NCBI RefSeq assembly: GCF_038025025.1
Contig: NW_027117351.1
Span: 496,001 to 560,000, forward strand
Length of the DNA stretch: 64,000 nucleotides
Direction of reading: 5' to 3'
Origin: Phyllosticta citribraziliensis
Lineage: Eukaryota
Positions 6,080-19,868 of the stretch are shown here, piece after piece. The first letter of the stretch is position 1; each line of letters opens with the position of its first letter. The notes beneath the pieces are model-generated. The model had not been told where the DNA came from. It ran no database searches and was given only the letters and a program-made list of their open reading frames with translations. The position numbers were made by a program, and so were the translations under genes.

Positions 6080-6896
6080 ATGACGTTCAGGGAGGAGCTC
6101 AAGTCGAGGAACTTCAGTAAGCTGCGCAAAACCGCCCCGGCCCGCCCGCCGCCTTGTTTGTTGCTTGCTTGAAGCTACGTTGCTAACACGGCGACCAGGT
6201 ATATACGGCCAATGGTCAGTACACCCTTTCGCTGCCTCTGCCTTGCCCAAGAAGCTTGCGTGCTTCGTCGCCGCGCAACTGGACATCGGGGAACCTGCGT
6301 CGGCAGATTTGCGCATCGCCAGGGAGGACCCGGTGGTCACAACAGAGCTGGAGCCTACACCATCAGGACACTGGGGATACTTGCGCCGCGCGCCCGGACG
6401 GACGCCGCAGACGCTGGAGAGCGATGCTGACAGCAACGCAGGACCGGAATTCTTTGTGTGATCCTGTGCTTTGCCATGGGCATTGCCAACATTTTCTCCG
6501 GCTTCCCAATCATCGTATTCAGCATCATTTGCCTGTGAGTCGGGTCCACCTCCTATTAGCGGACGGACGAAATTGGCTAACTCGTTTGATTCCAGCGCAT
6601 TCTCACCCGTCATCTTCTTTGTTGAAGTCGCCTTCCTCCTCAAGCTGCCCATCTGGTCGGAGGGCTTCCGCACCTTCTTCCGCCGCCTGCAAGAGAACTG
6701 GCCGCGCATCGTCATGTACCTGGTGATGAGCGTCGTCTTGTGGATCAGCTTGGTCGGCGGCGCCAGCTCTCTGATTGTGCCCGCCGTCTTCCTCTTGTTC
6801 GCCGGCCTCTTCTACTTGCTGGCTGCGCTCAAGAACCAGGACTTCCAGAGCAGCAAGATTTTGGGCGGACAGGGCGTTGCGCAGATGATCATCTGA
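6080..6896 (+). CDS. TVP18: Golgi apparatus membrane protein TVP18, 4 exons
   Basis: Spliced N-terminus MTFREELKSRNFSIYGQWTGILC and C-terminus SKILGGQGVAQMII are typical of fungal Tvp18; several hydrophobic helices. Confidence 0.9.
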
Positions 6897-8663
6897 GCTT
6901 GACAGAGAAAGAAAAAATAATGGGGTTCCGCTGCTTTTGCGCCGTCTTTTTGGTGCTGTTTGCATGGGCGAGCTTGCACCGTATCGATGTACCATGGTAG
7001 CAGGTTGCAGCAGGCTGACGTCACTTTTGATGTTCTTGTACGCGGCTTCACTTTGAACGTCTTTTTTGGCTCGTCGTCGATGGATGGACGCAGACGCAGA
7101 TGCAGAGCGAGCGAGGGGGCATCATTCTGTTGTTGGCAATACTGGACTTGAACTCTTTTTCCTTTCCATTTCTCCTTCACTTTTCACCCGTCGAGGAATC
7201 GCACCACCACCACCACCACCACCACCAAACCATTAGGTACCTCTAGTCTAGTGTTGACACAGTATACAGGAGTTTTAAGGATGGGAAAGGGAAGAATGTG
7301 GAATCAGAGGCTTCTCTTTTATCCTCTTTTTTTTTTTTTTTTTCCCACGTCCTTCTGGTTTTTATCTTTGCTGCTGCTGCTGGTTGTTGAATTGACGTGG
7401 CTGTTGTGCTGCTGAGGATGTAATACTGATTTATATCTAACCGTGTACCCACCATCTGTATATTCCGGTGCTGCTGCCTCTTCTGCAGGTCTTTGACTAC
7501 CTACCTACATGTACCCAGTCAACGTCTACATGTATATGACGAGCGAACTCGAGGGGAAAGAGAAAAAAAAAAAAAAAAGAAAAAGAAAAATGCCCCGCCG
7601 GATACGCCACGCCACACCACGCCACGGTGGAGCAGGGGAACCCACCAGCGGCGGCGCCGCAGCGGGGACAGCGGGGACTGGTTGATAGGGATGCTGGTGC
7701 AAAACATGGCTGTTGCACAAAGACCAGTCGATGAAAAAAGATTTGGCTAGAGAATGACAGTGTAGCATGCAAAACTGCCCTGTTTCAATACATCTACAGA
7801 CACAACGCGCTGGTAGGCGTAGGTCCCCGTCTCGTCAGGCGGGCGGCAGGCCAACCGATTAAACGTCCAACTCGGGTAGCTGACATAGATGGCTTGCCCG
7901 GCGCTGGCCGGCCTAAGGTACCTATGTATGTAATTAGGAGAGAGCGTGCACGCGTCAGGCACAGCATCACCGCAGTCAATCGACGAACGACGTGTGTGCG
8001 GTGTGCTGGTGTTGGTGTTGGGAGAGGAGGAAGCAAAAGGTAAATGGCGCGGCCACCACGGCAACCGAAGCGAACGGGGTCCGCCGCTGCGTGCTGTTGG
8101 TCGACGACGAGGCCGGGGGCAGGCAGGCAGGCAGGCAAGCACCCCAGTTGACCTAGGTCAGGTCAGGTACCCATGATGGCGCTTCGGGTTCTGTTGGAGG
8201 TGCGCCAGGAACAGAACTGAAAAGGTGCGCCCTGATGACCGCATCGAGATGGCGGGCTCTTGTTGGACAGGCAGCGCATCTCAGCAGCCACCTCACCCAC
8301 GCAGGGCTTCATCCATCACGTGGAGACGGCGAGAAACCAAGAGCTGGTGGGGTGGCATCGGACCAGATGCGATTGGGGCGGCTGCAGCGCATCGTGGGAT
8401 GGGCTGGATGGATTGATGGATGGATGGATGGATGGATGAGAATGTGATGCGGTTGGAAAAAGCTGACCGGCGGGACTAGAAGAGACAGACGAACGAATAG
8501 GAGCAGGCCCAATATCATCGTCAGATATGCAAAGTAAATGGCGCTTTCACCTTGTCGTGGGGTGGTGCACAGCCTGCACGGCGTCAGAAGCTCGGCCGTG
8601 GCTCCTGGGACTGGCACCTTGGTCTTGGTGATGGTCGAGCATCCCCGGCCTTGTCTGGATACC

Positions 8664-8792: not shown

Positions 8793-8891
8793 CGGTGATG
8801 CATGACCTTACTCCTGCAGCTCCTCCTGCATCTCTCGACACCAATGCTTCCCTTTCGCTTCCCGTCGTCTCCACCCGCTTGCTAACGTCAT

Positions 8892-9158
8892 TGTTGGTGG
8901 TCCTGTGTAACAACACCAAGCAGTCTCCCGTCGCGTCATCTTAGCTGCAGTTTACCTAGATAACTACAGCTTATCTAGATAATAACTTGCTACTTTAGTC
9001 AAGATATACTTATCTATTAGCTTCACACATCTTAATAAGTTTAGGACTTATTAGTAGTTAGTACCAGCTACTACTCCCCCTAGTAGTTTTAGTAGTATAT
9101 AGATAGCTCTTAGAGTAGCCTTAAATAGAGTCTTTAGTTCTCTCATCTTACTTTATCA
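8892..9158 (+). repeat. Copia 5' LTR (267 bp)
   Basis: Direct repeat of 19505-19771; the differences seen are C/T and G/A transitions. Confidence 0.95.
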
Positions 9159-10893
9159 GGTTATAAGCCCTCACATTATATATATAAATTACTTATCTAG
9201 CTTATTTTAGTATTATACTATAATACTATCTATATAATTATTACTAATAGTTATTTTATTATTTTATTATTTTATCCCTTATTATCTTATATAATTTCTA
9301 CTCTTTAGTAAATTTATTAGTATTATCTATCTCTATAACTCTAAGTAATATACTAATAGTTATTACCTTTATTATAACTTTACCTTCCCTTCCTCCTTTA
9401 TTATCTAGTAGTTTAGGCTTTACTACCACCTTATCTTCTATACTAGCTAAGTAGGCTAAGGCTAAAGAAGAGGTAGACCTAACTATAAATAATAGTAAGT
9501 TTAGTATCCCTTTAAAGAATATCTAGCCACTTAAAGGCCCTACTAACTAGGTAACCTTTAAGATAATAGTTAAGATAAGGCTTAGTCTATTCTATTATAC
9601 CTATCTACTTAAGGATAAGCTAAAAAATACTACTAATTATAAGAAGGATATATATATTATCTACTAGTTTATAATAATTATTATACTTCCTATTATAATA
9701 GTACTATAGGGGTATACTAGTTTAGCTTGCTCTATATAGTAGAAGCTTTATAATATATATAATACTAAGGGTATCCTCTTTAAGGCTAATATTATTAAGG
9801 ACTTTATCTTCTATTAATATAGTAATTTTATAATAGTAAAGGAATTCTATAATGCCCTATATAAATAAAGGTAAGCCTATATTAGCTATATCTAATAGTA
9901 AGTTAAGGACTAGATTCTCTATATTCTACTCCTAGAAAACTTATAGGATGATATTTCTATCTAGTATATAACTTAGTATATAAATTAGTATAATAAGAAG
10001 GAGATACCTAAGTTTAAGGATCTCTTCTATACTATAACTAATAAGATTAAATATACTAGTAAGAATAGTACTATAGCTCTTACTATTTATACTAGTTAGT
10101 AGTCTACTAAGTAGTCTAAGTCTAACTATACTACCTATAATTACTATAGAAAGAAGGGGTATATTAAGGCTAAGTATAGCTATCTTTACCTTAAATACCA
10201 TCCTACCTATTAGAAGCCAGTATTAGGGGTATTCTATATACTAGATAATTAAGTCTCTAAACTGCTAATAGTAGTAATAGTAATAATAATATTAATAACT
10301 AACCCTCTAGTATAAGGTGCAAACTACTTTACTACCCTATACCTATATCTAGCTTTAATAAAGGATGAATAGATTATTAATACTAGGGCTAATACCTACT
10401 ATATACTAAATTTAACTAAGCTAATAAACTACTTATAGTTTATATAGCTAGTCTAGGTATATAGTTTAGGTATAGTAATAGCTATTAGCTATAGTAATAC
10501 TATACTTTACTATCCTATAAATAGTATAGTTAATACTCTTATAATAGAGGGTGTTCTATATATTCTAGTACTAATAGTTAGTCTTATCTTAGCTTTAAAA
10601 CTTAAGTAGAAGGGACTATACCTAGATTAGCTTACCTCTATATTATAAATATAAAACTATAGAATAGCTATTATAGCTTGCCCTAATAGTTTAGGGGTAA
10701 ATATTCTAATAGTTATTAATAATAATTATATAGTATAAGTATTTACTATAGTAACTCCTCCTATAGTAATATATAAGATATAGTACTAGTAATTAGGGTA
10801 TATCTATACTGGCGCGCTTAATAAGCTCTAGTACTAGGGATAACTTATTATTACTAGTAACTAAGACTTCTATTATAAATCCTGCTATATAGC

Positions 10894-11316
10894 TGTTATA
10901 ACTTGCAGATTTCTTATTATATAGATAAGGGCTAAAGGTAAACTACTAGGAAATATATATATATCTTAATTAAATCTAATAAGTTAAAAGAATAAAATAT
11001 AAAAGATACTTACTATCTATATATTTCCTAGTCCTTCCTTTATACTATTCTACCTCTTATCCTTTATATAAGGGTCCTTAGTTATTATTAGGTAAGTTAT
11101 AAAGATAAGGTATTAATAGGCTGTTATGTGGTATCTTCCTAAGGCTATAGTAGCTAGTACCAGGCTATAGTAGCTAGTACTAGCCTATAGGTTTCAGCCT
11201 AAGCTATAGTAGGCTGCTACCTAAGGTGAGGCTTATACTTCTTATAACTATATAATACTAGGTTTATCTATACTAGCCCTAGTACTTATATAGGTATATA
11301 TATACCTATTATAATA
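10894..11316 (-). repeat. Gypsy 3' LTR (423 bp)
   Basis: Direct repeat of 18711-19133; contains an internal 20-bp tandem (aggctatagtagctagtacc, about 2.4 copies); next to the PPT. Confidence 0.95.
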
Positions 11317-11799
11317 TGCCCCCCCTAAAGAGAAGCTAAAATCGTAGGAATTAGCAGCTATAGGCGCTTATATAGGTATAGACTTATAATATATAATAGT
11401 AGTAATTTAGTAATTTAAGCATTCTATACGTATAGTATAATTATTAGTCTAGGTCTACTACTATACTATCTCTTTCTATTACTATCTCTTTTACTGCGCA
11501 ACCTATAAAAGGTTACTATCTTACTTAGCTATATTTAAAGCTCCCTATTAAAGTACGTTGTTATCCTAGTCTAATTTAGCTATAATCTAGTAAACTAACT
11601 ATTATATATAAAGGTTCTAATAATTTAAATAATTTGTACCCTACTAATAGTAAAGCAGATATTTCTAGCTGCTATATGCTTAATATATCTGCTACTTATT
11701 ATAGTCTAGTCTATTAGGACTTATTACTATTATATAAGAGTTATAGTATTAAGTTATTATTATACGGCATTATTTGCAATCTATTATAGTTACTACTTA

Positions 11800-13036
11800 C
11801 TTAGAGAGCTATTTTAGCTAGTAGTATCTATAAGGACCATTATATAGAGTCCTAAAGTAAGTAAACTTTAATTCTATCTCTAACTATTACTAATTATTAT
11901 CTAGGCTATTAAGTAGTATTATATATCTAGGTTTTACTACTTCATCGTCCCATCTTGCCAACTAATATAATTATAGAGGAGGACACTTATATAAAGACTT
12001 AATTAGGCTAGGCTTTACTTATTTAGCTAGGAATAGCTATAGGCTTATTACTTTACCTATAGCATACTATAGTATTAGGTTCTACTTAATTAGTATTATT
12101 AGTTATTATATAAGGTTCATCATCTATAGCTATACAGCCTGCTACTAACTAGCCTATTATACTACATCACTGCTGGTTCACTGTCGCGCAGCCTGTTTTA
12201 GAGGAAGAAGGTAAAGAGCCTACTTATATATACTATTATTATAATCCTATAGCTTGTTAGGTTCTAGCAGCTAAGTACTTACTACCTGCTACTTTATATA
12301 ATAGCAGTAATAGTAAGATTTATATTACAGCATTACTAGTTAGCTCTAATAAGGCGCCTATTAAGTAGGACTTTAAGTTAATACTTTATATCTCTTATAA
12401 GAATATAGAGAGTGTCGCATAAGTAAGTTTATCTTACTAATATAAGGAATTCTTATCTAACTAACTATATAGGCGCACCTTAGTAGTTCTAAAGTATAAG
12501 AGCGCGCTAAGCGCATCTTAGCCTTAGATAATAGCATGCCTTACTTATATATTATAGTTTCTACTTAGTAATTTAACTACTTATTAGTTAAAACTTAAGC
12601 CAGCTTATACGATACTTTTCTTATCTAGTATACTAGAATTAACAACCCTATTAGCTATACTAAGTATTATAATAATACTAATACTCGCGTATTTATTAGT
12701 TATTACTACCTACCTAGTTTCTTATAGGGCTGCTATACTAACTACCTTTAAGGTATAGGCAACCTTAACTACACTATAAGTAACTTAAAGAGTGCCAAGC
12801 CGCCTGCTTATTATAAGAGGTATAAAGATAAAATTTATATAGAGGAGTTTTAGAACTTATACTACTAAGCTAGATTAGAGGATTAAACTAATTAGGCTTT
12901 AGCTAAGTAGGACATCCTACCTAATAAGCTAGAAGATCTAGAGGAGATAGTCTTATATAATAACTATTATAATAAGAAGAAGGGAAAAGGAAAGAAGTAA
13001 AGAGTAAAAATTAAAGAAGAGGATAGTAGGGAATAA
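11800..13036 (+). pseudogene. RIP-degraded, spliced accessory gene inside the Gypsy element (antisense to gag-pol), DUF3716-like Cys-rich domain; 5' end uncertain
   Basis: De-RIP reading of 12599-12780: ASSYDAFLIQ.TG.DNP.GC.KC......VF.GC..LPGF..GCCANC.......C, followed by an acidic tract and KGKKxRVK. GTAAGT..CTAAC..TAG intron at 12423-12472; possible second intron at 11857-11904. Confidence 0.65.
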
Positions 13037-13139
13037 GTAGTAAAAAGGAGAGACTAGAGAGTAGAAGTTAAGATTAATAGTATTTATATAAGGGTAGATA
13101 GTAAACTAATTAGTCTACTTTCTATATCTTTATAATATT

Positions 13140-16100
13140 TACTATAGGCCTAAGTAACTTATTTTATTATTACTTTCTATTTTAATCTATAGTTCTTCTT
13201 AGAGAAAGGCAGCCTTCTATTTTTCTAGATTTTTTAGTAGTCCTACTATAATAGGGTGTAATAAGTAGAATTCTTTAATTTTCTATAGCGCGCTACTAAA
13301 AGAACTTATATTATACTACTAGTTATCTTAGTTATATCTAGTCTATTTAACTTAGTATTAAAGCTTCCTATATAAGACTTAACTAGCTTAAATATAGTCT
13401 ACTTCCTACTTAGGCTTATCTTAAATAATCTTAGGTTTAGGTTTAGTATATTCCTAACTAGGAAGCTATTCTATTTTAGCCTTATATAGCCTATTAGTAT
13501 AGAAAAGGTTAACTATCTTTATATATAAGGGAAGATTAAGGATATAGGAGGGTCCTTCTATTTCTATAATCTTAAAAGGTCTAGTATTAGGGAAGTCTAA
13601 TTTAAGGTTTAGCTAATTAGTAGACCATCTAGTTTTCTTAATATAGATATAATCTCTAACTATAAAGTCTAGCGCGCAACGGTATTTATTAGCTTATTAG
13701 TATATATACTCTTAGGATTTAAGAATAAGATTCTTTATAAATTTAAAAGCTTCTTATCTTCTCTTTTATAGCATTTATACTACTATATAAGCTATCTTTT
13801 CTAGTTACTAGGGGGTCTCTATTCTTTATTACTAGTTATAGTATATTTAAGGGGAATATCCTAACTTAATCTTAAAAGGTAAAAGTCTAGTAGCTTTATA
13901 GGGAAGTGTTACTTATATAAGGTCTATTAATAGTAGAAGATTAGACTAATTATTCTAAAAGTAATTAATAAAAGGTCTTAATCTTTATATAAGATACTAA
14001 TTAATAATCTCTATAATACTATTAGTTTAAGAGTAGTAGGATAAGTTAAAATGCTACTCTATACTAGTCAGCTTATATAGTTTATTTATAAATGCTAAGA
14101 TGAACTAAGGGCCTTAGTTAGATAGGATAGACTTAGGGTTTCTATAAATATAGTAGATATATTTATAAAAGAGTCTAGAGACTCCTTTAGTATTAATCTT
14201 CTTTATATAAGGCAAGCTAAAGGTTCTTTAACTTAACTAGTCTATAATAACTAGAATTATATTATAGCCTTTTTAGTCTTTAGGCATCTCTTTAAAATCT
14301 ATAGCTAAGTATTACTAGGGTTAAGTAGGAATCTCTAGGGGTTATAGAAGGCCTAGGTCTTTATTATAAAACTCTTTTATTTAGTAGTAAATATAGCATC
14401 CTTGCCTATAAATATTAATTATGTGATTTATAGCTAGCTAGTAGTAATATTACTTAAGGAGTTTTTACATCTTTATAATACTAGAATAGGCAGTTATATA
14501 GGTAGTATATAAAGTATTAAGTATTCTTGTGCGGAGGTTATTATAATCTAGTATAAAGAGGGTACTATATTATAATAAAAGACCATCTTTTAGTTCCTAA
14601 CTATTTCTTTATTTAAGGTCTTTTAAGAGGGCCTTCTATCTCTAGAGTTCTAATTTAGAATCTTCTTAGTTTATATAGAGAAGTTTATCTAAAAATAATA
14701 CTAGAGAAGGAAGTTCTTATTCTAAAATAGAAAGAGGGATAATAGTCTCTAGTAGGATAAGGTATATCTCTTATATAGCCTTTACTTTTTCTTTTTAAGT
14801 CTTTAGGTCTTCTTATTTTTAAGTAAGGTAATTAGTAATAATATTTTCCTTTCCTAGCTAATAGGAGAATTATATATAGAACTCTATAAAAAACTTAGAC
14901 TATCTAGCTTATTATTAATTAAGTTGTTATTTAGTAGAGTAGTACTCTAATACCTAATAGTCTATTATTATAAGAAAAGGTTTTTTAAGGCTAATAAGTA
15001 TTAGTCTCTATTCTTCTAGTCTATTCTTAATAGCTAGTAGTTCTTTATTAGATATTCTATAATAAAGTTCTACATTAGCTATTACCTTAGAGTAGAACGC
15101 TACTAGTTTCTAATTATATAAAGGTTATTAGAGCTATATTAAAACGCCTATAGTAACTCTATTACTTATATTAGTCTCTATATAAGTATTAAGAGTAGGG
15201 TCATAATTAGCTAGAAGTATATTACTATATATTAGCTTCTTAAGTTATTAAATTACCTCCTCTTCTAGGGGTCCTAGTAGTTACTATTTTACCTTAGAGT
15301 ATAGTTTCTCTAATAGCTAGCTAATTTATCTATAGTTAGGGAGAAATTATTAGTAGAAATTATAGAAACCTAAGAAGGATTAAAGAGCTTTAAGGGTTTT
15401 AGATATTAGCTAGTTTTATATAGGTTCTACCTTATCTAGGTCTATCTAAATACCTTCTATAGAAATAATATATCTAAGAAACTTTATATAAGTAACTAAA
15501 AACTTACTCTTCTTTAAATCTACCTATAGTCCTACTTTTTATAGTCTTACTAGTACTTTTTTTACTTATTCCTCATACTCTATAGGGTCTTTAGAGATAA
15601 TAAGTATATTATCTATAAAAGCCATAATAAAATCATCTAAATACTTAAAGAGAACCTAGTTAATAAAACATTAAAAGGCTATAGGTCTATTACTTAATCT
15701 AAATAGCAAGATATAGTATTTAAATAAGCTATATCTTATATAGAAGGTAGTCTTATCTTTAGAATCCTTAGTAAGATAAATATAGTAGAAAGCTTATTAA
15801 ATATTAAGCTTAGTATAAATTTTACCCTTTCTAACGCGCTAAAGTAACTCTATAATAAGAGGAAGGGGGTATAAATCCTTAGTAGTTTATTTATTAAGCT
15901 ATTAGTAGTCTATATAAAATCTCTATCCCCCACTAGGCTTTTTTACTATAAGAATAGGAGAAGTATAGGTAGTAAAGCTCTTAGTAATAAAGCCTTTTTA
16001 AAGGTTCTTAATAATATACTCTTTTATAGCCTTAAGCTGCTCTAGAGATATTCTATAGAGAGGACTAGGTAGAAGCTCTAGTAGACTATTATATATAAGA

Positions 16101-18600
16101 GATATTTTATAATTAACCCCTACATAATATAGTAGTAGCTTATTAGACTCTATTTTAGAAAATACATCTTAAAATTCCTTATAAGTAGCTAGTAGCTTAG
16201 AAGCTAATAATTCCTTAGTTTCTTTATCTTTAAGAGCCACTTAAACTTATATAAGGTTAATAGTATAGATCTCTATTAGCACAACTTATATTTTATAGAT
16301 AGAAAGCTTAAAAGCATCTTAAGTTTAAAATTTAATTCCCTTAATAACCTATATTAAGGGAAGAAGGCATTTATTAAAGTTTTTATCTCTATAGTCTATA
16401 TCTACTTAATATTCTTTCTATAGTTCGTTACTTTATATAGAGACTTTTAGTAGGCATAAAAGATACTAAAAGGATTAGTTAACTAGTAGCTATCTCTAGA
16501 CTAGTTTATATTATTTATAGTCTAGAAGAACATCGTGCTAGTTAAAAAACTATTACCTAAGAATCATGTTATTACGGCTAATATTATAAATAAAAGTATA
16601 AGTAGAAACTATTTAATCCTAGAAGTAAAGTTAAAGATAAAAGTAAAAATTAACTTTCTTATTTATATATTAGTTAAACCTAGTAATATTAAGCCCTTTA
16701 CCTATTATTCTCTTTTTTATAGCACCTATAGACTAGAGAGTTAGTAGTAGCTTAGGGTAAATAAAACTTATACTACTAGTACTAGTATTAGCTAGGGCAC
16801 GAATTTCTAAGGCGCGGCTATTAGATATAATTAAGGTTTATATAGTAAAGGGTATACCTCTAATAAAGTAACTAAGATTTATATAAGAACCTTTAATATA
16901 TATTACTCTAAGTTTAGACCTAAGGTAGGAGACTTTACCTAGGCCTTATTATTTTCTAATAAAGACTAATCTCCTTTATTTATATAGATATCTTTAGTAC
17001 TTTCTTCTTTAACTAACTCTATTACCTTTATCTTAGGTTATAGGCATTATCTCTATAAATAGCTAAACTAGCTATAGCAATTATATGGTCTAATCTCTAT
17101 ATAGACTTCTACTTTACCTTTATAGGTTGTATTATATAAGGGAGCCCTAGATATAGATCGCGCCTAGGCATAACTAGAAGATAAAGTACTTATACTATCT
17201 AAGATAGTTATCTTTACTTATTCTTATTATCTCTTCTTTACTTATTTCTTATATAACGTAAGTGTTAGTTTTCTATAGTTAGAATAGTAGTTACTAAGAC
17301 TTTAAGTAATAGGGTAGGCTTATTAGAGGTACTTATAAAAGTTAACATCCCTATCTTACTCTATAGTAACTATATAGGTTTAAAGGAGAGGATCTATTAT
17401 ATTATAAAAGTCCTCTTTCTACTATTCCTAAGGAAGATCTATATCTAAGGCTAATTATATAAAGTTTAATTAAAACTTCTAAAGGTCTATAGAGATATAG
17501 TATATAAGAGAGTATAACTACTTCTTTATATCCTTATATTTATATAGACTCTAAAAGAGGTTATCTAGGAATTTAAAGATATCCTTATTTAGAGTGACTT
17601 TATTAGCCTTTATATAAGAAGTAAGGAAAGGAGTTAGGTAATATAAGACTTCTCTACTAATATAGGAAATAATATAACCTATAATATTCTATTTAGTCTC
17701 CTCTACTATATCTTTAGTAAAGTAATTATAGTTTTATTTAATTTTATTTTATATAAGGAGGGTCTAGTATTTATATAAGGGGTCTTCTCTATTAGTAAGA
17801 AGAGGAGGATTAGGAACCTTACTACTTTAGTATTTCTTACTACTTAAAGATAAAGTAGAGGTTTTAGTAGTAGTTTCCCTTATATAGTTAGGAGGAGGTC
17901 TAAGAGTCCTTATAACTCTACTAGTAGAAGGATCTTAAGAGAGGGTAATAGGTCTTAAGTACTAAGCTAATAAAAAGGGCCTAATATATCCTTCCCTTAG
18001 AACTTCTCTAAGTCTATTAGTATAGTTTAAGAGCATTTACTTAAGAGCCTAGTTTTACCTTTATATATAGTTTAGTTACTACTATACTTAAGACTTATTT
18101 AAGGATGCAATCTTAGATTTAAATTAATTAATATCTAAGCGCGGTACCTTTATAAATGCCTCTATAACTAGAGCTTAAACTGTATAAGTTAACCCTAGGT
18201 CTTAGGTATATTCTTTTACCTCTACTACTAGGACTAAGTAGAAATTATATAGGAGAATAGGGGTAGGTCCTCTCTTATTATTATTTAATAAGTATCTAGT
18301 ATTATATAAATCTTTAGTTCCTTTATATAAATCTTATTAGGTTAATTAACTAGTACTAATACCTTTAGTAGTACTAGATATATTAGCTTTATTCTTAGCT
18401 ATACTATCTTTATAGTCTTCTACTTAGAATGTCCCTTAAGTAGGTTATAGATAGGACACCTTCTAAATATTTATATACTACTCTATAGCCTTAACTAAAG
18501 ACTTCTATAGTTAATATATACTTAATACTCCTTAGTCCTTAGATAATACTAATGCACCTAATAAAGACGACTTAGATTTACTAAGGAAAAGTAATAAGTA
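13140..18600 (-). pseudogene. Gypsy gag-pol (RIP-destroyed; ends approximate)
   Basis: Domain motifs as listed for the element; many TAA/TAG codons at positions expected for Gln/Trp/Arg. Confidence 0.85.
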
Positions 18601-18710
18601 GTCTTATATAAGACTATAGCTATATATAATATTACTTAGGTTAAATATTATAACACCTTTATAGGTAAAGAAGTAGGATAGAGCTAAAACTTAAAATAAT
18701 CTTTTATATC

Positions 18711-19133
18711 TATTATAACTTATAGATTTCTTATTATATAGGTAAGAGCTAAAGGTAAACTACTAGAGAATATATATATATTTTAATTAAATCTAATAAG
18801 TTAAAAGAATAAAATATAAAAGATACTTACTACCTATATATTTCCTAGTCCTTCCTTTATACTATTCTACCTCTTATCCTTTATATAAGGGTCCTTAGTT
18901 ATTATTAGGTAAGTTATAAAGGTAAGGTATTAATAGGCTGTTATATAGTATCTTCCTAAGGCTATAGTAGCTAGTACTAGGCTGTAGTAGCTAGTACCAG
19001 CCTGTAGGTTTTAGCCTAAGCTATAGTAGGCTGCTACCTAAGGTGAGGCTTATACTTCCTATAACTATATAATACTAGGTTCATCTATACTAGCCCTAGT
19101 GCTTATATAGGCGCGTGTATACCTATTATAATA
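18711..19133 (-). repeat. Gypsy 5' LTR (423 bp)
   Basis: Direct repeat of 10894-11316; minus-strand TATATAAA at about 18880-18887. Confidence 0.95.
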
Positions 19134-19504
19134 TCTAGATAACTTAAGTTCTTACTAAAATAGGTTATAAGGGCCTTAATACTTAACTAATCTAGCTCTA
19201 TAATAATAATAAGAATGCTGTCTAATTTACTAATAGTATAGAGTTTAATACTGCTATAAAATATATTAATCTATACTACTAGTATATTAAGTAGGTAGTT
19301 ATAGATAGAACTATAACTATCTCTTATATCTCTACTAATAAGATAATTGCGGACAGGCTTATTAAAGTATTAGTAATAGTTAAGTACTACTACTTTTATA
19401 ACCTTATTAGGTATAGACTAATATAGTAAGTTTTCTATTTAGTTAATATAACTACTTATATATCTACTCTACTATAACTATCTCTTTTCTTATCCTAGGG
19501 GGTA

Positions 19505-19771
19505 TATTAGTAGTCCTATATAATAATACTAAGTAGTCTCCTATTATATCATCTTAGCTACAGTTTACCTAGATAACTATAGCTTATCTAGATAATAACT
19601 TACTACTTTAGTTAAGATATACTTATCTATTAGCTTCACACATCTTAATGAGTTTAGGACTTATCAGCAGTTGGTACTAGCTACTGCTCCCCCTGGCAGT
19701 TTTAGCAGTATATAGATAGCTCTTAGAGTAGCCTTGAATAGAGTCTTCAGTTCTCTCATCTTACTTCATCA
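19505..19771 (+). repeat. Copia 3' LTR (267 bp)
   Basis: Follows the PPT, ends in CA and is followed by the GTCAT TSD. Confidence 0.95.
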
Positions 19772-19868
19772 GTCATTGCCATCCTCCAGCATTCGATTCC
19801 CTTCATCTCAGCTGTCTTTGCAACCCGACATTTATTCCTCTAGCATATAACCCATCATCGTCACCATC

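Follow-up and report, generated by a model that had tools for sequence, protein, structure and literature searches.

What fills the space between the end of pol and the polypurine tract in a chromovirus of Phyllosticta citribraziliensis is the question raised by a stretch of 64,000 nucleotides (NCBI RefSeq assembly GCF_038025025.1, contig NW_027117351.1, positions 496,001 to 560,000 of the forward strand), hereafter the window, in whose coordinates positions are given. The element is a minus-strand Ty3/Gypsy chromovirus of 8.3 kb, heavily altered by repeat-induced point mutation (RIP) and lying inside an AT-rich island. A first-pass annotation, made from the letters alone, had claimed that about 1.8 kb separate its pol gene from its polypurine tract, and that this tail carries an extra, intron-containing gene, antisense to gag-pol and tail-to-tail with pol, encoding a protein with a DUF3716-like cysteine-rich domain. 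The distance was borne out, with pol ending at about 13142 and the tract at 11318, and the candidate gene (approximately 11857-13036) falls within these limits. In our assessment, the tail is probably what RIP has left of a spliced accessory gene that the element carried antisense to gag-pol and whose product had a cysteine-rich domain. The proposal of an antisense, intron-containing gene finds support in a codon signal, in an enrichment of intron motifs, in other copies of the tail, and in intact equivalents from two related elements, whereas the protein family and the function proposed with it were not supported. The features on which this reading is based are the following:

11318..13141, strand unassigned: tail between the polypurine tract and the end of pol, about 1.8 kb, multicopy
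11857..11904, plus strand: candidate intron of 48 nt, with GTAAGT, CTAAC and TAG
11905..12422, plus strand: candidate upstream exon, weakly supported, with codons starting at 11907 and a start codon that could not be placed
12423..12472, plus strand: candidate intron of 50 nt, with GTAAGT at 12423, two CTAAC at 12457-12465 and TAG at 12470-12472
12473..13036, plus strand: candidate main exon, with a Cys/Tyr-rich motif, then a Glu/Asp-rich and then a Lys-rich stretch, and 14 RIP-type stops
12656..12772, plus strand: putative six-cysteine motif, with one intact Cys codon (12731) and Tyr codons at the other positions

Coding potential was assessed with a codon log-likelihood model, for which the RIPed pol frame of the element itself served as the training set and the five remaining frames as the contrast. 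As controls, a held-out half of pol scored +43 bits compared with -49 to -149 in the other frames, a single frame was selected in gag, and the long terminal repeat (LTR) was negative throughout. Over 12473-13036, the claimed plus frame alone was positive, with +16.0 bits against -13.7 to -37.8 in the five others; none of 5000 local-dinucleotide simulations reached this value, and the two halves of the interval passed separately (cysteine half, P=0.015; C-terminal half, P=0.006). An empirical null was also obtained from 820 windows in other RIPed parts of the island, the true gag frame included, of which 0.85% reached 16 bits. Further, the TpA dinucleotides of the interval displayed a three-base periodicity (P=0.0034). 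The residues quoted in the first-pass annotation for the frame from 12473 are present as translated (AKRILAL...ASLYDTFLI...GC.TN.). Its claim that a coherent protein emerges once TpA changes are undone stands only in part: the stops on the plus strand of the tail are all TAA or TAG, with a TGA count of 0, so that every plus frame opens after such a reversal and the argument from openness is worthless, and what speaks for the protein is the frame-specific codon signal. The S/Q/E-rich N-terminal part that had been proposed for it could not be verified.

Both sets of intron motifs, at 12423-12472 and 11857-11904, were found where they had been placed. On the plus strand of the 1823-nt tail, 2 canonical intron motifs compare with 0.078 expected (P(>=2)=0.0065); the other 8.7 kb on the same strand contain 1. 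In the codon model, the best plus frame changes class exactly across 12423-12472, with a shift of 2 bases as a 50-nt intron implies. Over the upstream exon (11905-12422) the claimed plus frame scored -8.0 bits, with P=0.006 against local simulations (range 0.006-0.014), and the other plus frames -39 and -47 bits. It is well established that introns survive retrotransposition only if they are antisense to the genomic RNA; the introns of such a gene would therefore persist, since they would never be spliced out of that RNA, and this argument of the first-pass annotation is sound and is fitted by the L026 gene described below.

The tail is not a one-off insertion. When contigs of four public sequencing runs were mapped on 11250-13350 (likeness 80-100%), 173 contigs of run X5 and 14 of run X9 were placed, with differences of the RIP type. 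The tail is bridged to the end of pol by X5 record 15 (13033-13209) and by X9 record 24 (12921-13178), as well as by X5 record 14 (12918-13062, 14 differences), and a clearly distinct copy is among those bridged; because such diverged copies in X5 and X9 join the tail to pol, it belongs to the element family. Where the window reads TATA at 12107-12110, two X5 contigs read CGCG, which suggests a former CpG-rich spot in the region of the upstream exon. Among the contigs mapped to 11250-13350, no splice joint was found at 12423-12472 or at 11857-11904. A contig of X13, a run that is RNA only by guess, crosses 12353-12489 unspliced and ends in adapter-like sequence, and a 103-nt skip from 11608 to 11712 was seen in a single X5 contig; none of these observations was taken to bear on expression.

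The cysteines reconstructed by the first-pass annotation received partial support from these copies. At the loose end of a contig from a less RIPed X5 copy, positions 12734-12742 read TGC GCC AAC (Cys-Ala-Asn), which matches the reconstruction; apart from the intact Cys at 12731, the remaining positions are Tyr codons in the window, and the six-position pattern occurs at chance level. A tighter Cys/Tyr expression, written post hoc, had its only match in the island at 12656 and none in 100 simulations.

Intact equivalents were found among related elements. An alignment of 12 Pol relatives was used as the query of a metagenome contig scan, yielding 66 loci, in which pol was taken as the longest plus-strand open reading frame (ORF) of at least 600 aa and a G-rich tract was sought 3' of it. 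Such a tract was found in 15 loci, lying 5-57 nt after pol in 12 of the 15 and 233 nt after it in L068; the only long spacers among them were those of L018 (555 nt) and L026 (1392 nt). Both of these contain an antisense ORF with the pattern C-x2-C-x11-C-x8/9-C-x2-C-x6-C, which had no other match in 524 kb read in six frames:

L026:4505-5319, minus strand: intact antisense cysteine-rich gene, 4 exons
L018:4295-4546, minus strand: intact antisense cysteine-rich ORF

The L026 gene has 3 introns of the form GTAAGY...CTRAC...YAG (51, 52 and 46 nt) and a product of 221 aa, in which a Gln-rich start is followed by the cysteine domain, a middle exon (helical by eye alone), a basic KRPRV stretch and an acidic end. 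This layout matches the one proposed for the window. The pol of L026 is intact, and the stop of the antisense gene lies 107 nt from that of pol; no such gap separates the antisense ORF of L018 from the stop of pol, which it adjoins. The cysteine domains of the two loci display a weak likeness (BLASTP E=0.004, 31% identity over 39 residues). Immediately past the G-run, the LTRs of L018 and L026 also begin alike, with T[GA]ATGTGACG. In the window, ATAAGT at 12776-12781, one codon past the sixth putative cysteine, is a possible RIPed GTAAGT donor. Its place relative to the cysteine domain is that of intron 2 in L026; downstream of it, neither a branch point nor an acceptor was convincing.

The antisense ORF is absent from the sister elements L030 (of L018) and L032 (of L026). 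In a FastTree phylogeny of 29 Pol sequences, the window clustered with the tailless L001 and with L041, an intact element whose 2-kb tail contains a sense ORF of 563 aa (6825-8513, plus strand). This ORF sits after pol, where retroviruses carry env, and it showed no similarity to the window tail (29-40 half-bits over six frames, none of which stands out). Judging from these sequences, the slot after pol seems to be a site at which accessory genes are gained and lost. A scan of viral contigs gave 3 distant elements, all without tails.

The element that carries the tail was characterized as follows. The host DNA of the window is GC-rich (GC 0.52-0.66) and is interrupted by a single AT-rich island at about 8.9-19.8 kb (GC 0.25-0.31), which bears the RIP signature, with TpA/ApT of 1.6-2.0 and (CpA+TpG)/(ApC+GpT) of 0.07-0.35. 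The following features belong to the chromovirus inside it:

10855..11317, minus strand: 3' LTR of the inner chromovirus, by alignment to 18679-19134
18679..19134, minus strand: 5' LTR of the inner chromovirus, by alignment to 10855-11317
11318..11330, minus strand: polypurine tract, a G-run reading CTTTAGGGGGGGC on the minus strand and adjoining the 3' LTR
13142..16600, minus strand: pol, RIPed, from protease to a chromodomain-like end, by Pfam and Pol relatives

The two LTRs are identical at 422 of 456 aligned bases, with transitions making up most of the differences, and the LTR edge is marked by an X9 contig that diverges from the window sequence at 11316. In one minus read-through frame, Pfam recognized RVT_1 (E=2.7e-13, approximately 15469-15946) and RNase H (two families, E=2.4e-09, approximately 14881-15265), and nothing beyond these was found in the six read-through frames of 8800-19800. 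The LTR pair, the polypurine tract, reverse transcriptase and RNase H are thus seen on the window itself. Integrase and chromodomain were not called by Pfam on the RIPed pol reading, and are known only through full-length alignment to relatives with PF00665 and PF00385. The pol reading matches 216 chromovirus-type Pol proteins at E<=1e-10, the best with 37% identity, and its end at about 13142-13150 follows a chromodomain-like C-terminal stretch that agrees with the consensus of chromodomain-bearing relatives.

The chromovirus is itself flanked by outer direct repeats at 8894-9159 and 19507-19772 (266 nt, 89% alike), and is thus nested in another RIPed element. With just about 2.1 kb of RIPed DNA between its repeats and the inner LTRs, the outer element has the appearance of a small, non-autonomous LTR element that received the chromovirus as an insertion. 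A plus frame of the outer element, at 9200-9715, exceeded the local null of the codon model (P=0.026), and the same area contains a strict intron-like motif at 9495 and the Cys/Tyr pattern at 9682. When the tail was compared with the outer region (9160-10877), both a DNA alignment tolerant of transitions and purine/pyrimidine word matching remained at control level, and these two matches are therefore taken as chance.

Membership of the window gene in DUF3716 had been proposed from a motif, and the searches did not bear it out: PF12511 matches neither the raw reading nor the intact ORFs of the relatives. When the read-through reading from 12473 was searched with X at stops, Pfam returned 0 families at E<=10, PF12511 included; a word-index search with the candidate reading gave 0 matches among 42 candidates of 103-329 aa, and phmmer against 1.84 billion representatives found no true relative and one spurious match. 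A 1756-aa repeat protein with bacterial-type domains, P0002, was rejected, having matched via a repeated 33-residue stretch with 36% identity. As the DNA is RIPed, failed homology searches are to be expected and decide nothing, and the PF12511 test on the window reading is powerless because RIP left a single putative Cys codon intact and converted the others to Tyr. The L018 ORF and the L026 exons matched neither PF12511 nor any other Pfam family at E<=10. In the ESM Atlas, whose own line is a score of 0.9, the nearest clusters were unnamed Ascomycota proteins of 76-105 aa (0.86-0.90). A cluster in which 28% of the members carry PF12511 ranked 21 for L018 (0.79) and 3 among the named clusters for L026 (0.77), scores that lie below the line and serve as leads only. 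Structure prediction of the L026 cysteine exon with AlphaFold2 was too poor for a fold search (pLDDT 59.5), sequence searches of the PDB with the L018 and L026 domains gave a best E=0.9, and a word search with the alignment of both domains matched nothing beyond L018's own record. The window reading does fit what we take to be the cysteine-rich motif of DUF3716 once Tyr is read as former Cys. We hold membership of the window gene in this family to be possible, if rather doubtful.

Besides the Pfam, word-index and phmmer searches of the window reading, several observations weigh against an antisense gene in the tail. The reading of the interval 12473-13036 contains 14 stops in 188 codons. Its intact Cys codons number one, at 12731, the other presumed cysteines being Tyr codons that may formerly have encoded Cys or His. 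With 4 occurrences in the island where 2 are expected, the six-position Cys/Tyr pattern is not significant by itself in a Tyr-rich reading, in which chance suffices. A strict intron motif lies outside the tail at 9495, and the minus strand has another, of 36 nt, at 12282. Part of the codon signal comes from GAG, AAG and AAA codons, the training pol being Lys/Glu-rich. RIP-aware alignment of the tail to the L026 protein gave 24-32 half-bits in all six frames, which is noise; this was the probabilistic version, the maximum-over-ancestral-options Smith-Waterman having been uninformative (all frames 113-139). The cysteine-domain chunk of the window ranked 147th of 1380 against L018 and 9th against L026, neither rank being significant. 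The nearest pol relatives of the window lack the gene, L041 carrying a sense ORF instead, and over 11905-12422 the claimed frame is rivalled in score by a minus frame whose codons start at 12420 (+4.6 bits, P=0.012), leaving the coding strand ambiguous there. From such points it could be argued that the tail is non-coding, for instance a degenerate 3' untranslated or regulatory region, and that protein, introns and cysteine motif were over-read from AT-rich RIPed DNA, in which TAT/TAC, GTAAGT, CTAAC and TAG are all common, RIP reversal opens every frame, and no search of any kind returned a homolog. We nevertheless consider a non-coding tail unlikely. The codon signal is specific to one frame, was reached by no simulation and is negative in the other five frames; the TpA periodicity, the excess of intron motifs and the frame switch at one of them likewise oppose a non-coding origin, as do the TGC at a reconstructed cysteine in another copy and the intact equivalents in L018 and L026.

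Alternatively, the plus-strand gene might be real and yet a passenger, that is, a host gene, possibly of the DUF3716 kind, captured in reverse with its introns and useless to the element. The sporadic distribution (L030, L032 and L001 being without the gene) would agree with this, and so would the GC content at third positions, which is highest in the claimed frame (0.36), unlike in pol, though not significantly so (P=0.18); moreover, in its passages on extra ORFs a review discusses transduction as one of their origins (PMC7264820). The same passages describe passenger genes as occurring in one or few copies only (PMC7264820), whereas the tail is present in many diverged copies from at least two other runs, and its position and tail-to-tail spacing of about 100 nt recur in the window and in L026, with the L018 ORF abutting the pol stop. 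We thus grant the passenger only a slight chance. There is less still to recommend a tail that, at least in 11340-12420, encodes or encoded a sense ORF on the pol strand, as in L041, with the plus reading there as its shadow. In addition to the positive score of the minus frame from 12420, that frame hovers around zero from 11340 to 12390, compared with a mean of about -20 per 188 codons for unrelated frames, and a member of the window's own pol clade does carry a sense ORF after pol. However, stops are no rarer in the minus frame (84 in 607 codons) than in the other frames, the L041 ORF is dissimilar to the tail, and 12473-13036 is positive in the plus frame alone; a sense ORF is accordingly judged very improbable.

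If the tail is indeed an element-borne antisense gene, its transcription in intact copies would start from a promoter belonging to the gene, in the part of the tail next to the polypurine tract, and would proceed towards pol. The transcript would be spliced, with at least one intron of 50 nt and probably a second of 48 nt, and would encode a small protein in which a cysteine-rich, probably zinc-binding domain precedes an acidic and lysine-rich, nuclear-signal-like tail. Zinc binding and a nuclear location are inferred. The product, as a protein or via antisense RNA, might take part in regulating the element; that it acts as a regulator or an anti-silencing factor, as the first-pass annotation had supposed, is conceivable. 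The window copy itself is dead, and no direct effect on the host is therefore to be expected from it. A fungal lineage with canonical introns, a recognizable cysteine domain and intact copies such as L026 would constitute a tractable system, and a route to asking whether antisense genes regulate their elements and why they are gained or lost between sisters. There is also a warning for annotation, as such genes sit in masked or RIPed repeats and are seldom called. Were the DUF3716 link true, it would give this uncharacterized fungal family its first biological context, namely accessory proteins of transposons of class I and class II.

To our knowledge, it was more than 25 years ago that antisense extra genes were first recognized in LTR retrotransposons of plants; a single fungus joined the list in 2011, and no such gene has an assigned function. 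The plant elements with antisense ORFs belong mostly to non-chromovirus lineages. In its passages on extra ORFs, a review covers those located antisense between pol and the 3' LTR in plant elements, and names Boty of Botrytis cinerea as a non-plant case (PMC7264820). The plant examples described there are all Gypsy elements, namely maize Grande with gene23, rice RIRE2, Silene Retand and Phaseolus PvRetro13, and in Grande the antisense gene is preceded by a dedicated promoter and its GENE23 protein is nuclear; accessory regulation and double-stranded RNA are given as proposed roles of these ORFs, which are without an assigned function (PMC7264820). Position and orientation are the same as in the window; the hosts are plants, and the proteins are described as having no clear similarity to others in the databases (PMC7264820). 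The word "intron" is absent from this review.

A close counterpart by description is brtn, an antisense extra gene of the Boty-like chromoviruses of Botrytis cinerea (Zhao et al. 2011, Virology 417:248, as cited in PMC7264820, PMC8365987, PMC4227169 and PMC5987419). In passages of the citing papers, BcGypsy1 is drawn with brtn (PMC8365987), and a Boty-like element is described with a CHROMO domain and "brtn-106" (PMC4227169). As in the window, the carrier is a fungal Ty3/Gypsy element with a chromodomain, and its extra antisense gene, like the candidate gene here, lies between pol and the 3' LTR; according to these passages, brtn was found in several copies or subfamilies, and a transcript from Monilinia is similar to a truncated Pol as well as to BRTN. 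The host lineage differs from that of the window, the comparison is one of descriptions and not of a brtn sequence, and the citing passages make no mention of introns, cysteines or DUF3716. The supplements of PMC8365987 mention neither brtn nor DUF, and in a review of fungal LTR retrotransposons (PMC3248453) the words "antisense" and "opposite" occur 0 times. The novelty that the first-pass annotation had attached to an antisense extra gene was hence overrated, given that brtn of a fungal chromovirus was published in 2011, as its citing passages state (PMC7264820, PMC8365987, PMC4227169).

DUF3716 proteins are carried by a fungal transposon, the IS3EU DNA transposon REP9 of Zymoseptoria tritici, whose REP9-1 and REP9-2 are described, in the passages concerned, as of unknown function and without a signal peptide (PMC8232023). 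They resemble the proposed gene in being fungal, transposon-carried and without a known function; REP9 is a class II element, unlike the chromovirus of the window, and these passages mention no link between DUF3716 and retrotransposons (PMC8232023). A wider view, which we offer as a speculation with little probability behind it, would regard six-cysteine, distantly DUF3716-like proteins as a mobile accessory module acquired repeatedly by fungal transposons of different classes, spliced and antisense in chromoviruses (the window, L018, L026 and perhaps Boty brtn) and as REP9-1/REP9-2 in IS3EU; its members would be nuclear zinc-binding proteins that tune the elements' own transcription or blunt host silencing, and their patchiness would result from gains through recombination between elements.

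Fungal zinc clusters of the Zn2Cys6 (Gal4) type have the spacing C-x2-C-x6-C-x5-12-C-x2-C-x6-8-C. L018 and L026 are similar to them in having six cysteines in two halves centred on C-x2-C and in the restriction to fungi. They differ in the third cysteine, which follows the second after 11 residues instead of 6, and Zn_clus had no Pfam match at E<=10 in their ORFs. Among retroviruses, HBZ of HTLV-1 is a regulatory protein encoded antisense to the genomic RNA near the 3' end, from a promoter of its own. This promoter is located in the 3' LTR according to a passage of the review on extra ORFs (PMC7264820), and not in an internal tail as proposed for the window; the carriers are animal retroviruses, and there is no sequence relation. 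The antisense extra gene is a kind already known from fungi and plants, to which the window would add a variant.

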